From contig OY970323.1 in assembly GCA_963716985.1 (NCBI GenBank), forward strand, positions 32,001 through 96,000: a stretch of DNA of 64,000 nucleotides, given 5' to 3'. The number at the start of each line of letters is the position of its first letter. Positions within the stretch are counted from its first letter, which is position 1. The notes under the pieces are model-generated. The model searched no databases. It was not told the DNA's origin and worked only from the letters and a program-made list of their open reading frames with translations. The translations under genes were made by a program, and so were the position numbers. Shown here one piece after another: positions 2,150 through 24,574 of the stretch. The stretch is from an uncultured bacterium (GTDB taxonomy: Bacteria > Chlamydiota > Chlamydiia > Chlamydiales > SM23-39).

Positions 2150-3248
2150 GCAAAAGCTCCTCAATGATCGCTAGATGTTGTGCGGCACTTTTTTTCCATG
2201 AGAATTGCTCGATTCTCTTTTTTCCGGATGCAATCAAATGCTGCCTTAAGTGAGTATCCCCAAGAATCTTGACCATCGCATCTTTCATTGTCAGGGGATC
2301 ATAGGGATCGATATAAAGAGCAGCATCTTCACAAATTTCCGGAATACTTGCAATACGGGAAGCAATGACAGGACAAGAACTTGCCATCGCTTCCAAGGGG
2401 GGGAGTCCAAATCCCTCATAAACGGAAGGGAAAACCAGAGCGCACGATCGATGGTAGATCATAGGCAGGTCTTCATCAGGGATATTTTTGAGCCAAAGGA
2501 CCTTCTCCCGAATGTTCCCAAATCGCTCCATGAGCTCTTCAAACAACTTCCCAAACCCTTTCCCTACAATGACTAAAAAAACATCCCTCTTCTCCCTTGC
2601 GAGGAGTTGAAAGGCTTGCAAAAGACCGAGCAGGTTTTTATGCGGCTTTACATTTCCGACAAAAAGGAAATATTTTTGGGGAAGAAGGGAGAGAATCTTT
2701 TCGTTTTTTTCCGGTACTTTAGAAAATTGTGTAGGGGAAACGCCGCAATAAACAACGGAGGTCTTTTTAAAAAATTTTGGAAAAAATTTCTCTATCTCTG
2801 AAAGAGTAAAAAGGGAAACTGTCACAACGCGATCCGCCTTTCGCATGGCTTGAGAGATCACAATTCTTGCATAGATTTTTTTCATCCAATGCAACTGTGA
2901 AAAAAAAGCCAAATGATAGAGGTCATGAATGGTAATAAGTCTCTTTTTGGCACGAATGGGAAAGAGAGGCGCATTGAAATGGGGAGACCAAAAAAGATCG
3001 CAGGGAGGAATCAATTGCGGCAGGTGGATCTGCTCGCGCAGGGAGTAGATCGGATCTTCGCAAAAAATAAGGGGATAGGAAAGCAGCCAAGGAGAGGTTT
3101 TCAAGGCGTTCTGTGAAACAATAAGAGTTAGGTCCAAATCCCCTTTCGACAAAAGAGGAATCAGATTCTTTAAATAGGTTCCGATCCCAGAATGCTCGAT
3201 CATGCGAGCGTCGATACAAATTTTTTTCATTTCAAATTTTTCGGTCAT
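2127..3248 (-). CDS. Glycosyltransferase family 4 (group 1)
   Basis: IDARM..SGIGTY, GNVKPHKN, FPSVYEGFGLPPLEAMAS motif. Confidence 0.9.
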   Translation of the reverse strand: MTEKFEMKKICIDARMIEHSGIGTYLKNLIPLLSKGDLDLTLIVSQNALKTSPWLLSYPLIFCEDPIYSLREQIHLPQLIPPCDLFWSPHFNAPLFPIRAKKRLITIHDLYHLAFFSQLHWMKKIYARIVISQAMRKADRVVTVSLFTLSEIEKFFPKFFKKTSVVYCGVSPTQFSKVPEKNEKILSLLPQKYFLFVGNVKPHKNLLGLLQAFQLLAREKRDVFLVIVGKGFGKLFEELMERFGNIREKVLWLKNIPDEDLPMIYHRSCALVFPSVYEGFGLPPLEAMASSCPVIASRIASIPEICEDAALYIDPYDPLTMKDAMVKILGDTHLRQHLIASGKKRIEQFSWKKSAAQHLAIIEELLHEDSTCS

Positions 3249-3326
3249 GCAAAAAAATTAACGGCTCAAGAATAAAAAGCCAAAGGAATTCCTCTGAGCC
3301 AAACAAAGGGATCTCGAAAGATTTTT

Positions 3327-3355
3327 TTGATTTATTTCAAAGCGCGCTTTATAAT
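3327..3355 (+). promoter_or_regulatory. Sigma70/sigma66-type promoter TTGATT-N17-TATAAT
   Basis: TTGATT at 3327-3332, 17-nt spacer, perfect TATAAT at 3350-3355. A GGAGG Shine-Dalgarno follows at 3369-3373. Confidence 0.7.
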
Positions 3356-3361
3356 TTCGCA

Positions 3362-3680
3362 AATTCTTGGAGGCTTTGTCAATCACCCCTCCCTAAAGGG
3401 AGAGGCTTGTTATGAAACACGCCTTGGTTGACCAGACTAAGTACCGTAGTTTGACAAACGTTTAAGGGTACTAAGTTGTATAGAGGCCACAGACCTACCT
3501 TGGGATGCTTCCTCAGTTCCAAGTTCTAGAAACTCTGGTTGCAGACAAGCGACAGGGTAAGCACGAAACGGATTAGAGTACGTGCCGCTATACAACATTG
3601 TCGAGGGGAGAGAACATTGCAAGTCAGCTTTGTTCCGTAACAAGGCCCTTACGGGCATTGATAGGGGGAGCAATCCCCCT
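3362..3680 (+). ncRNA. IscB omega-RNA / HEARO-like RNA with predicted ~16-nt 5' guide (3362-3377)
   Basis: Ordered motifs typical of HEARO/IscB omega-RNAs: GTCAA..CCCC, GGCTTG, GTTGACCAGACTAAG, ACCTTGGGATGCTTCCTCAGTTCCAAG, CAGGGTAAGCACGAAACGG, ACAACATTGTCGAGGGGAGA, AGGCCCTTACGGGC. Both RNA ends are estimated. Confidence 0.75.
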
Positions 3681-3758
3681 GTTTTTAAACTTTAACAACA
3701 AAAGGAGCAGCGTTTCCTCCCACCCCTAAAGGGATGGGGTTCCGCGCTGTCAAATAGG
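3378..3758 (+). mobile_element. Non-autonomous IS200/IS605-superfamily (IscB-type) element carrying only an omega-RNA
   Basis: Starts GTCAATCACCCCTCCCTAAAGGGAGAGGCTTG and ends with the sister hairpin CTCCCACCCCTAAAGGGATGGGG (3717-3739) followed by ATGA. No iscB or tnpA ORF inside. Confidence 0.8.
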
Positions 3759-4481
3759 ATGAAAAAAATCATTCTCTGTTTTTCTTTCTCCCTTTTCTTT
3801 TTCATTCAGAATTTAGGCGCCCTTGCAAATCCCGAAGAGTATCGATATCTCGATGCGCTTGCTCTGCAATCAGGAGCAGATAAAGCATCTAATTATCACA
3901 ACTATACGGAAGTCTATGCACAATATTTTGCACCTCTCAAAGACCGTCCGATTAAGTTTTTGGAAATAGGAATCTACCAGGGAAGCAGCGTGAAGTTATG
4001 GGAGTCCTACTTCAAACAAGCAGACCTCCATTTCATCGACATTACCTTTAGTGAGGTTCAATATTATTCTCCCCGCTCCCATTACCATTTGGCCAATCAA
4101 GAAAATCCTCGCGATTTAGAGAAATTTATCCGTGCAGCCGGAGGAGATTTCGACATTATTCTTGACGATGGGGGCCATACGATGAATATGCAGATCGTCA
4201 GTTTTAAAACACTCTTTCCGCACTTAAAAAGCGGAGGACTCTACATCATCGAAGATCTCCACACCTCCTACTGGCCCTCTTTCGGCGGAGGAGAAAACCG
4301 CGGAACTACGGTTTCTTTTCTCAAGAGCTTGATCGATGAATTGAATTTTGTCGGGAATCGCACCACACGCGCAAGCCATCGCGATCTCGCCCCTTCGCTT
4401 CTCGACAGCCTCTCTCCCTATCAGAGAGAAATAGAATCCATTCATTTTTATGATAGCCTGGCCATCATCATCAAAAGGTAA
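3759..4481 (+). CDS. Class I SAM-dependent methyltransferase (MycE/Mtf-like sugar O-methyltransferase) with signal-peptide-like N-terminus
   Basis: DK..HNYTEVY, FLEIGIYQGSS, FDIILDDGGH, LKSGGLYIIEDLHTSYW. N-terminus MKKIILCFSFSLFFFIQNLGALA. Confidence 0.8.
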   Translation: MKKIILCFSFSLFFFIQNLGALANPEEYRYLDALALQSGADKASNYHNYTEVYAQYFAPLKDRPIKFLEIGIYQGSSVKLWESYFKQADLHFIDITFSEVQYYSPRSHYHLANQENPRDLEKFIRAAGGDFDIILDDGGHTMNMQIVSFKTLFPHLKSGGLYIIEDLHTSYWPSFGGGENRGTTVSFLKSLIDELNFVGNRTTRASHRDLAPSLLDSLSPYQREIESIHFYDSLAIIIKR

Positions 4482-11010: not shown

Positions 11011-11124
11011 ATTGGAAGAGATCTTTCATCGATCAATTTTGGCTGGCAAAATTTTTCCATTTTTCGCATACTTGTACTATGAGTTTTTTTACGTTGCGTA
11101 CATTTTGATCCCAATGATCTCATA

Positions 11125-11185
11125 CAAGAGGAGATGCGCTTTTTCCCGCCCCTAAAGGAGAGGATTTTTTCGCGCAGTCAATCGC
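11125..11185 (+). mobile_element. Degenerate right end of the same IS200/IS605-type element as 3378-3758
   Basis: 27 of 34 nt match 3699-3732 without gaps, then CGCGC(A/T)GTCAA, again directly before ATGAAA. Confidence 0.6.
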
Positions 11186-12385
11186 ATGAAATTTTCTGTC
11201 TTATTACCCACTCGAAATCGCTTAGAATTTTTAAAATATTCGCTTCAGTCCGTTCTCTCCCAGGATTATCAGAACTGGGAAGTGATCCTTTCTGACAATT
11301 TTTCTGATCAAGATATTCAAGGATATATCCAATCGCTCAATGAGCCCAGAATCAAATATTCGAGAACCGAGAGTTTTTTATCGGTCACTGAAAACTGGAA
11401 TAGAACCATTGAAAAAATCACCGGCGATTACGTGATTATGCTGGGAGATGATGATTGCCTCATGCAAGGCTATTTCACCACCATTTGCAATCTCATGAAA
11501 CAATATCCCGACCCCGATTTGATCTATACAAGCGGCTATCTTTATGCTTATCCCGGAGTGGTCCAAGAATTTCCTCAAGGATTTCTGAGAAAATCGGGAA
11601 ATGCAAGATTTTTTCAATCTCGACAAGAGCCTTTTTGGATCAGGCAGGAAGAGGCGTTTCAATTGGTCTCCCATTCGTTGAATTTCGAGATGTTTTTTCT
11701 TTATAACATGCAGTATGTTTTGATCAGCAATGCCTTGATAAAGAAGATCCAAAAAAACGGGAAGTTTTTCCACTCCTCCTATCCCGACTATTATGCGATG
11801 AATGCACTCATGTTGCATGCAGAGCGCATTCTTGCCTGTCCTGATTGTTTAGTAATTGTCGGCATTTGCCCCAAGTCTGCCGGAGCGTTTTTCTGGAATC
11901 AGAAAGAAAAGCAAGCAGCAGAATTATTAAATGATTCTTCCCCTCTTGAAAAACAGATGGAGTCGATCGTTCTTCCGGGCGCTGCCATGACCACTTCCTG
12001 GCTCCTAGCCATGGAAGCATTAAAGGAAAATTTCAAAGATTTTTTTCCGTTAGAGGTGAATTATAAAAGATATAGAACCCTGCAAATTTTAGAATTCTAT
12101 AAGAATTGGACAAAAAATGGTGCTTATGACGAGGGACAGCTCTCTCTTCTTTGGAAAAAAATGGAGAGGAAAGAAAAACTATTTTATGGAGCACCTCTTC
12201 ATCTGATCTCTTTTTTCCTCCGCGCAATTGGAAAACTATTCGGGAAAAAATTTGTCAAACAATTAGTCACTGTTGCAAAGGGTTCCCCGAAACATTTCTA
12301 TCAAGAGATTCCTCAAAATTTTGCAACGATTCAGGAGGTTTGGAATCATCTAAACCCACCAACCAAAAACAGCTTTCTCTTATAA
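11186..12385 (+). CDS. Glycosyltransferase family 2
   Basis: MKFSVLLPTRNR, SDNFSD, GDYVIMLGDDD. Confidence 0.9.
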   Translation: MKFSVLLPTRNRLEFLKYSLQSVLSQDYQNWEVILSDNFSDQDIQGYIQSLNEPRIKYSRTESFLSVTENWNRTIEKITGDYVIMLGDDDCLMQGYFTTICNLMKQYPDPDLIYTSGYLYAYPGVVQEFPQGFLRKSGNARFFQSRQEPFWIRQEEAFQLVSHSLNFEMFFLYNMQYVLISNALIKKIQKNGKFFHSSYPDYYAMNALMLHAERILACPDCLVIVGICPKSAGAFFWNQKEKQAAELLNDSSPLEKQMESIVLPGAAMTTSWLLAMEALKENFKDFFPLEVNYKRYRTLQILEFYKNWTKNGAYDEGQLSLLWKKMERKEKLFYGAPLHLISFFLRAIGKLFGKKFVKQLVTVAKGSPKHFYQEIPQNFATIQEVWNHLNPPTKNSFLL

Positions 12386-23038: not shown

Positions 23039-23408
23039 CTAACCTCGTGATTTTTGAGTTTCAATGTATTTTCTCACGGAATCTTCTGTGATATGCCCAA
23101 CTGTTGCATAATATGTGCCCTTGCTCCAAAGTCCAGATCCCCAAAATTTTCTACTTTTCAGTTGAGGGAATCTATTGAAAAGATGTACGGCGGAGATAGA
23201 TTTCAATGTTTTGGCAATTGCAACGGGTGCAGTTTGGGGAGTGGCCCGGACAAAAATATGTACATGGTCTGGCATAATAATGAGCATATGCTTCTGCTAA
23301 GACCTTTTTCCATTCAATTTCAATGGCATCTTTTAGAATCTGATGACAATATTTTGGGCACCAAATGATGTGATATCCAAGAAAAAATTTTGCGTGATTT
23401 GTTGCCAT
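23039..23408 (-). pseudogene. tnpA: IS200/IS605 Y1 transposase, frameshifted and internally deleted
   Basis: NHAKFFLGYHIIWCPKY in one frame; MPDHVH (HUH)..LWSKGTYYATVG..VRKYIETQ in another. Confidence 0.9.
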
Positions 23409-23437
23409 CGCCAACCTATAAGTACAATACATTACCC

Positions 23438-24574
23438 ATGAAAAGAACGGTGCCAATTCCAATCACACTCAATCCCTCTTCCTTTCTGCCTCTTATGGAG
23501 TGCTGTGCTCATATTTTCAACGACCATGTCGATTGGGCGCTCGAAAACAAACCATGTAATAAATCAAAGGCTCATGCAGCCCTCTATGAACAGATGAAAG
23601 AAAAACATCCGGATGTCCCGACAGCATTCATACAGACCGCTCGAGACACTGCCATGGAATCGGTCAAGGGCACGTCTTTTAAAAAAAGACCCCGGAAGAA
23701 AAAACATTCCGGCCTTCGCTTTGACAAACGAACGATGAACTTGCGGGGAGAACAACTCACTTTGTCGAGTATGGGTAAAAGAGAAAGGGTAATACTGAAC
23801 ATACCCGATTACTTCCGTCCTATTTTCGATTCTTGGAAATTAAAAGGCGCTACATTAACTTATAGCGTAAAAACAAAGCAATTTTGGATCCGTCTTGTCT
23901 ATGAAACAGAGTCGCCCGCTCTAAAAACAGAGGGTAAGGTTTTTGGGATCGATCGGGGGATACGGCAACTCGCAGTTACTTCCGAGGGACAATTTTTTTC
24001 AAATAGTACGATTCGCGCATCCCAGCGCCGTTATTTGTACAACAGGAAGACAGCTCAGGCAAAAGGCACTCCTTCTGCTCGTAGTCGATTAAAGGCTATG
24101 AGTGGAAAAGAGAAGCGGTTCAGCCGTGACGTCAACCACCGAGTTACCAAGCAGCTTGTAAGTTTAAGCGATGTAAAAACCTATGTTCTTGAAGACTTGA
24201 AGGGCATACGTAACAAGCGTCGAGGAAGAAAACTCAATAAGAGATTGGGCAGTTGGCCTTTTCATCAGTTTGGTTTTTTTCTTACTTATAAGGCGGAAAT
24301 GCTTGGCAAAGAGGTTGTCTATGTGGATGCATATTATACAAGCAGAAAATGCAGCTGTTGCAAAACAATTCAAAAGAACAACAGGAAGAAATCAAAATAT
24401 CACTGCAACCAATGCAATTTTCAGCTTCACGCAGATTGGAATGCTGCGATCAACATAAGAGATAGTTACATACTCTCTTCTACGCAAAAAGTGTCTGAAG
24501 AGCAGGCTGCTGTCATCCAGCCATATGTGACGATCGGAAACGGTCAGTCACAAGCCTATTGCCTTGTGCAGTAG
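23438..24574 (+). CDS. tnpB: RNA-guided endonuclease TnpB
   Basis: RuvC-I GIDRG, RuvC-II VLEDL, Zn finger CSCC..CNQC, RuvC-III HADWNAAINI. All three catalytic acidic residues are present. Confidence 0.93.
   Translation: MKRTVPIPITLNPSSFLPLMECCAHIFNDHVDWALENKPCNKSKAHAALYEQMKEKHPDVPTAFIQTARDTAMESVKGTSFKKRPRKKKHSGLRFDKRTMNLRGEQLTLSSMGKRERVILNIPDYFRPIFDSWKLKGATLTYSVKTKQFWIRLVYETESPALKTEGKVFGIDRGIRQLAVTSEGQFFSNSTIRASQRRYLYNRKTAQAKGTPSARSRLKAMSGKEKRFSRDVNHRVTKQLVSLSDVKTYVLEDLKGIRNKRRGRKLNKRLGSWPFHQFGFFLTYKAEMLGKEVVYVDAYYTSRKCSCCKTIQKNNRKKSKYHCNQCNFQLHADWNAAINIRDSYILSSTQKVSEEQAAVIQPYVTIGNGQSQAYCLVQ

Follow-up and report, generated by a model that had tools for sequence, protein, structure and literature searches.

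The closest described relatives of the element reported here are ISC transposons, of which ISC1-1_MA, ISC2-1_HM and ISC2-1_MS, together with their IS605B partners, have an N/ATGA target (Kapitonov, Makarova and Koonin 2016, PMC4810608). ISC elements have a 5′-GTCA end and subterminal hairpins, insert 5′ of ATGA without duplication and are mobilised in trans by a Y1 TnpA. The present element shares these structural and insertion properties and is predicted to be mobilised likewise, but carries no iscB. Read-in transcription and PATEs with omega-RNAs are established (Meers 2023, bioRxiv 10.1101/2023.03.14.532601). PATE-like elements and stand-alone omega-RNAs (Meers 2023; Hirano 2022, PMC9581776) have in common with it the absence of genes, the presence of both ends, a guide (predicted for the present element) drawn from the 5′ flank by read-in transcription, and a bias to transcribed sites. 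In the group, four bases at the hairpin foot set the target by the IS608 rule, under which the first two guide bases pair (He 2011; Morero 2018). A hairpin-shortened ribosome-binding site is known from T4 genes 38 and 25, where the SD-AUG distance falls from a non-functional 22 or 27 nt to a functional 5 or 11 nt, respectively (PMC3014915). Thus element class, ATGA target and stand-alone omega-RNAs are already known. Statements on these papers refer to the sections drawn on here.

The window, by which we mean the whole stretch of 64,000 nt of DNA analysed, contains a gene-less element of 381 bp directly before the start codon of a methyltransferase gene (Table 1). An initial annotation had described promoter hexamers, a GGAGG, this element with twin CCCTAAAGGG hairpins and the ATGA, and all were recovered: TTGATT at 3327-3332 and TATAAT at 3350-3355 with 17 nt between them, GGAGG at 3369-3373, and CCCTAAAGGG in both ends at 3391-3400 and 3724-3733. 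Its description of the element as free of open reading frames also held, in that no iscB lies inside; there is one minus-strand TTG frame of 78 codons (3437-3673). The proposed identity as a HEARO-like, IscB-type omega-RNA was borne out by a covariance match over the whole Rfam model (105 bits against a cut-off of 83, E 1.4e-20).

Table 1. Features of the insertion locus, with positions in the window.
Feature	Positions	Strand	Basis
Putative host sigma-70-type promoter, outside the element, TTGATT-17-TATAAT	3327..3355	+	Kept in G001
Original 5′ leader including the old SD; predicted omega-RNA guide	3362..3377	+	Sequence; IscB biology
Guide-side end (RE), comprising the GTCA cleavage motif, a TAAA-loop hairpin at 3386-3405 and the transposase guide at 3406-3409	3378..3409	+	
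HEARO / omega-RNA scaffold	3378..3615	+	Rfam RF02033, 105 bits, model 1-211
GCAA-loop hairpin and T-run, terminator-like	3660..3686	+	Predicted from sequence
Element-encoded SD AAAGGAG, 5′ foot of the end hairpin	3701..3707	+	7 bp complementary to host 16S 3′ end; -8.1 kcal/mol
TAM-side end (LE): basal stem 3707-3713/3744-3750 around TnpA hairpin 3719-3738 and guide 3739-3742	3707..3750	+	
Last 8 nt of the element, which with the hairpin folded would space SD and AUG (inferred)	3751..3758	+	
ATGA: insertion target, predicted TAM and host gene start	3759..3762	+	Empty site in G001; N/ATGA target in Kapitonov 2016 (sections drawn on)
Host class I methyltransferase, 240 aa, Methyltransf_24, sugar O-methyltransferase-like	3759..4481	+	Domain and structure matches

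Judged by its sequence, the element is a non-autonomous (PATE-like) IscB/ISC member of the IS200/IS605 group with an N/ATGA target, all tested features fitting except the fourth guide base. The RE guide reads CAAG on the bottom strand and fits TGAC by the IS608 rule. The LE guide is GAAC in this copy and GAAA in five of the nine two-ended copies of the genome; GAAC fits the rule at guide positions 1-2 and differs at position 4, where the rule also has a pair. Subterminal hairpins at both ends are common to this element and the iscB-bearing ones, and BLAST against two iscB elements gave 96.6-96.8% identity over about 60 nt at the 3′ end and about 80-82% over 66 nt at the 5′ end. Here and elsewhere among chlamydial genomes, the scaffold of gene-less copies is followed by a tetraloop hairpin with a T-run, whichever of the two omega-RNA subfamilies they belong to; neither of the iscB-bearing full copies has one between omega-RNA and iscB. 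This terminator-like hairpin could end a discrete omega-RNA, and in front of rpsF, which lies behind another copy, it must be leaky or bypassed. No outward promoter was found in the 3′ module by eye or by promoter scan.

The host promoter was the sole promoter-like site in positions 3150-3900, where 1.1 would be expected by chance; the call has value because it is conserved in a congeneric genome (G001) as TTGATT-17-TACAAT. G001 holds an orthologue of the methyltransferase gene without the element, encoding an 84% identical protein and syntenic with a divergent GT4 gene. Its empty junction, which had been predicted as a compact arrangement of ribosome-binding site and start, reads ...CAGGAGGGGTC directly followed by ATGAAAAAAATC, and it keeps the promoter, GGAGG and the same ATG. 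This confirms that the element was inserted at N/ATGA between the ribosome-binding site and the start codon. Insertion 5′ of the 4-bp target without duplication is seen from empty sites in G001 here and for five other copies, although the flank has diverged between the species and single-base precision comes from sibling copies that share both boundaries. In total, G001 was empty at 6/6 two-ended copies checked (of nine), with an ATG at the aligned position.

As the initial annotation proposed, the promoter, kept in G001, is placed to supply a guide from the 5′ flank. It would drive both the omega-RNA and the methyltransferase mRNA. The guide role of positions 3362-3377 is predicted because of what is known of IscB biology (Meers 2023, bioRxiv 10.1101/2023.03.14.532601). 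The last 10-16 nt of this guide followed by ATGA occur nowhere in the genome, and the last 8 nt followed by ATGA occur once; the empty site would therefore be the sole target in trans. In one contig (depth 3.3), the old SD carries G>A at 3373, possibly an error.

The methyltransferase gene sits in a polysaccharide gene cluster, among glycosyltransferase genes. The Methyltransf_24 domain, this setting and the sugar-type relatives agree with the earlier label of glycan methyltransferase, of which the activity on glycans is plausible only. Solved relatives at E ≤ 0.01 were just two, 8ia9 (demethylmacrocin O-methyltransferase) and 3ssm. By eye, the N-terminus encoded at 3759-3830 is hydrophobic and signal-like, which is unusual in a SAM-dependent enzyme; such an N-terminus is also seen, likewise by eye, in the adenylate kinase encoded next to another copy.

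The genome, a single contig, yielded 11 HEARO matches, nine of them above cut-off (control genomes 0/14). Its gene content and the labels on its nearest iscB relatives suggest a chlamydial host. Two copies carry a full 442-aa iscB, of which the one scanned scored 437.7 bits against NF040563, so that the iscB in trans supposed earlier does exist. The omega-RNA studied here shares about 62% identity with those linked to iscB and 77.5% with that of another gene-less copy; tblastn found no iscB of its own subfamily in this genome. Searching the genome with a profile of the 75 nt that precede the target, made from eight copies and excluding the target itself, gave 42 matches at E ≤ 10, of which 23 had E < 0.01; these 23 comprise nine two-ended copies and 14 orphan ends. 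The initial annotation had asked whether all further copies end before ATGA; ATGA adjoins 22 of these 23 TAM-side ends. Frames of at least 79 codons are opened by 20 of the 22, the exceptions being a tRNA gene and a 28-codon frame. Genes behind family ends include rpsF (S6), adk (adenylate kinase), V-ATPase E and the T3SS stator. Rough gene calling puts 712 of the 21538 genomic ATGA at starts, and starts make up 23% of start and non-coding sites together for ATGA and 33% for ATGAAA. Relative to these fractions, 20/22 at starts has binomial p values of 2e-11 and 3e-8, respectively. Placement at ATGA start codons is a family habit and not specific to the methyltransferase.

Several further loci were observed. 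In the window, a decayed orphan end of this family, with GAGGAG (about 11120-11185), stands directly before the ATG of a GT2 gene at 11186, which belongs to the same polysaccharide cluster as the methyltransferase. An IS605-type element at about 23054-24574, with a split tnpA on the minus strand and a 378-aa tnpB-like frame, has an end that abuts ATAA and is without an SD, and provides a negative control within the window. Elsewhere in the genome, a gene-less copy (L003, G000:C1:1919569-1919223, minus strand) ends a few bases before a tRNA gene (assigned by eye), and its omega-RNA may be co-transcribed with the tRNA and trimmed by tRNA processing. In another genome, a HEARO copy in which no TAM-side end is visible (L122, G128:C20) is followed shortly downstream by a ribosomal protein gene that looks L14-like by eye.

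At the other end, four of 11 guide-side ends in this genome are at apparent ATGA stop/start overlaps with a long upstream frame in phase (G000:C1:1491365, 389379, 166141 and 1818584). At these insertions the element's first hairpin gives an in-frame stop after six codons (three cases) or 11. A set of 153 metagenomic and viral guide-side ends had 12, 22 and 19 open upstream frames in the three phases, showing no enrichment, and in-frame stop rescue was rejected as a general rule.

Insertion removes the canonical SD. The host 16S 3′ end reads CCUCCUUU, and host SDs peak at positions -13 to -9. With the element taken out, the old SD forms a duplex of -8.7 kcal/mol with the anti-SD; in 23/23 inserted copies, the window -20 to -3 reached no better than -2.9 kcal/mol. 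At the hairpin foot, pairing with the anti-SD was -5.6 kcal/mol or better in 18/23 copies, including 9/9 two-ended ones. For this copy the SD-AUG distance is 51 nt in linear form and about 8 nt with the hairpin folded, as predicted. The end region has a predicted folding z of -4.0, and its stem (3707-3713 with 3744-3750) leaves 8 nt before the AUG. A strong SD too far from the AUG, none at canonical spacing, and a stable predicted hairpin between them are therefore all present.

Comparison of the ends showed that stems vary by compensatory changes and AGGAG stays at the foot. In some lineages GGAGG lies instead in the 3′ arm of the hairpin, at canonical spacing, which suggests that the foot SD and the 3′-arm SD are two solutions to one need. 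Other details were less clear-cut. The last G of AAAGGAG falls inside the basal stem, and weak pairing between the AUG region and codons 4-6 is predicted for this copy. In orphan ends, 6/42 SD positions had changed compared with 69/280 hairpin positions, a noisy alignment in which SD retention is only slightly above that of the hairpin. A wobble-strand check (G-U against A-C pairs) gave 2 vs 3, not favouring the RNA strand.

The SD could also be compared between ends of different target. Viral-contig ends were collected with patterns covering only the hairpin and guide, blind to both SD and TAM. The AAAA-guide pattern gave 120 matches, 56 with hairpin and basal stem, of which 49 were at ATAA (48 distinct); the GAAA-guide pattern gave 119 matches, 66 with hairpin and basal stem, of which 63 were at ATGA (55 distinct). 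The IS608 rule held in these ends. With a threshold of ≤ -6 kcal/mol, and with a few duplicates remaining, an SD was found at the foot in 27/55 ATGA-type vs 6/48 ATAA-type ends, and at the foot or canonical position in 36/55 vs 7/48. A control window further upstream also showed an excess (9/55 vs 1/48), so composition contributes. After clustering at 80%, the counts were 13/35 vs 2/28 for the foot and 20/35 vs 2/28 for foot or canonical position.

The same contrast was found in chlamydial genomes, with an SD in 16/17 and 7/9 ATGA-type ends (23/26 in all) vs 0/15 ATAA-type ends, and it recurred within one genome holding both types (G167). The ATAA set consisted of 20 hand-picked hairpin-like matches from four genomes, less five with a weak hairpin; the pattern was loose and matched 222/401 genomes, mostly by chance, and only these 20 were used. 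For the first ATGA set 20 ends were picked, two dropped and one found at ATAA; for the second, 20 of 30 loci were dropped as non-elements or edges and one had no target. Since the elements are related, all ATGA/ATAA counts are not independent and are inflated by kinship. SD presence was equal for iscB-type (5/7) and tnpB-type (5/7) ends, and full iscB elements from other phyla gave the same picture by eye. An earlier end detector had required the predicted TAM, and its ends are illustrative only.

Frames of at least 80 codons followed 18/35 viral ATGA ends vs 42/206 background ATGA, and 11/17 and 6/9 ends in the two chlamydial sets. Within the viral loci, SD and ORF were not associated, long frames occurring at 12/27 ends with an SD and 6/8 without. 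One genome shows a young expansion (G269:C1, L720-L728), with 20 pattern matches and near-identical ends. Five of the eight ATGA sites fetched there open long frames, and one further copy is at ATAA. This genome suits measurement of insertion preference before selection.

The explanation that we judge best, and reasonably probable, is that of a PATE-like IscB/ISC element in which the TAM-side end serves as a portable split ribosome-binding site, with the gene remaining translated and the element a fixed resident. The non-autonomous element would insert 5′ of ATGA and so cut off the canonical SD of the host gene. Survivors would pile up at start codons, both because intragenic ATGA insertions would be purged and because IscB-type elements would depend on a host promoter for read-in transcription. 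The hairpin required by TnpA at the DNA level would also form in the mRNA, placing AAAGGAG some 8 nt before the host AUG. The element's SD would then replace the one lost, and the methyltransferase would still be translated. Its output is probably changed, and lower, owing to the terminator-like hairpin, which, lying ahead of the SD, would reduce read-through if it is not leaky. This copy most likely stays in place and does not toggle. On a wider claim our judgement is evenly balanced: that ATGA-targeting IS200/IS605-group elements (IscB and TnpB, across phyla and in phages) made the left end a portable ribosome-binding site, split or in the 3′ arm, with the target as host start codon and insertion translationally silent, and that at stop/start overlaps the other end would return an in-frame stop.

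A rival reading is that of an ordinary ISC/PATE remnant, for which start codons would simply be tolerated, transcribed ATGA sites, AGGAG an inherited by-product of the C-terminal iscB codons or of end structure, and the gene translated without an SD or poorly. Consistent with a by-product, AAAAGGAGC belongs to the iscB reading frame in both full copies, where it encodes K-R-S, and the hairpin loop is formed by the iscB stop. Host genes are often without a strong SD (359 + 652 of 1812 with three or fewer matches), an orientation bias to transcribed sites has been described (Meers 2023, bioRxiv 10.1101/2023.03.14.532601), and the lack of SD-ORF association in viral loci is as a remnant would have it. 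The young G269 copies point the same way, since only 5/8 are at long frames and filtering after insertion therefore matters. We nevertheless consider a remnant rather unlikely: the SD persists in gene-less and tnpB-type ends, tracks the target motif and not the nuclease, and occurs at either of two functional positions, and the start enrichment exceeds the non-coding expectation. A domesticated attenuator, in which the terminator-like hairpin and an alternative fold of SD and anti-SD (AGGAG with TTCCT) would set or regulate methyltransferase output and be the reason for the copy's retention, possibly via IscB on the omega-RNA leader, appears very unlikely. The element is absent from G001, copies sit before unrelated genes and a tRNA gene, and the bridging fold is the one predicted as stable. 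In its favour are the hairpin and T-run common to gene-less copies of both subfamilies, the contact of IsrB with the SD-bearing terminal hairpin of its omega-RNA (Hirano 2022, PMC9581776), and a foot complementary to the element's own TTCCTCC arm in 23/55 ATGA-type vs 2/48 ATAA-type ends. This own-arm pairing could be an alternative fold. Because ATAA-type feet so rarely pair with their own arm, a general need of DNA structure does not explain the motif.

The initial annotation had favoured a dedicated, reversible switch of glycan methylation, in which excision by TnpA would restore the ribosome-binding site, and IscB with this omega-RNA would cut the empty allele and restore the insertion. 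The empty site is indeed an intact SD-start unit, both element ends and two full-length iscB genes are present, expression could be lower with the element in place because of the terminator-like hairpin, and excision with restoration driven by IscB/TnpB has been shown for Geobacillus elements (Meers 2023). Separation from the old SD, however, cannot simply mean "off", because the same arrangement precedes housekeeping genes (rpsF, adk, V-ATPase E) and the T3SS stator gene, and the element supplies an SD of its own. For the supposed excision by a TnpA in trans, no intact IS605-type tnpA was found among the four Y1_Tnp matches. Two of these are identical IS200-type genes with intact domains and different ends, and the other two are the halves of the split IS605-type gene of an ATAA-type element. 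Given the low identity of this omega-RNA to those linked to iscB (62%), the failure of tblastn to find an iscB of its subfamily, and a left-end guide of GAAC, not GAAA, we regard such a switch as highly improbable and have abandoned it. No excision joint was seen in contigs of four runs or studies at depth 2-6, in three of which the junctions were bridged, contigs being prone to drop rare variants.

The two IS200-type tnpA genes (L012 and L013; G000:C1:757416-757772, plus strand, and 1970077-1970433, minus strand) have a peculiarity of their own. Both seem to be interrupted right after the ATG by a group II intron-like element with a 449-aa RT frame, which starts with GTGCG after the SD-ATG; L013 has 265 extra bases downstream. 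TnpA would therefore need splicing. An Rfam search at gathering thresholds did not call a group II intron at these genes.

The split ribosome-binding site proposed here differs from that of T4 genes 38 and 25 in that the predicted hairpin is a transposon end of 44 nt, much longer, and the site is mobile and would serve any following gene. To our knowledge, such a 44-nt bridge would be the longest hairpin-bridged ribosome-binding site, compared with T4. IStrons, which combine IS605 with a group I intron, likewise limit the harm of an IS200/IS605 element to the gene it lands on; in the present case there would be no splicing, and rescue would occur at translation initiation and need a target motif that is the start codon. 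The sections drawn on from the PATE-like reports (Meers 2023; Hirano 2022, PMC9581776) describe neither systematic start-codon placement nor a terminator-like hairpin, nor an SD in the TAM-side end. In the portions searched, "start codon" has no occurrence in PMC4810608, which describes no ribosome-binding site in an element end, and "ribosome binding" has none in Meers 2023; "ATGA", "start codon" and "ribosome" have none in a 2026 OMEGA review. No prior account of start-codon placement or of a ribosome-binding site in an end was found in the literature, although Weinberg 2009 (HEARO), Altae-Tran 2021 or supplements, including that of Meers, may mention start codons. The use of the target as host start codon, and a transposon end carrying a ribosome-binding site that would rescue the gene, thus appear new in the literature searched.

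If true, this would account for the ATGA TAM that many IscB/TnpB elements have and for the frequent use of ATGA as an IscB target. It would represent a new means by which an insertion sequence does no harm in a gene-dense genome, even when it lands in front of ribosomal-protein or ATPase genes, and a splicing-free counterpart of IStrons. It would also be a natural source of rewired 5′ UTRs; in this genome, orphan ends remain before about a dozen genes.
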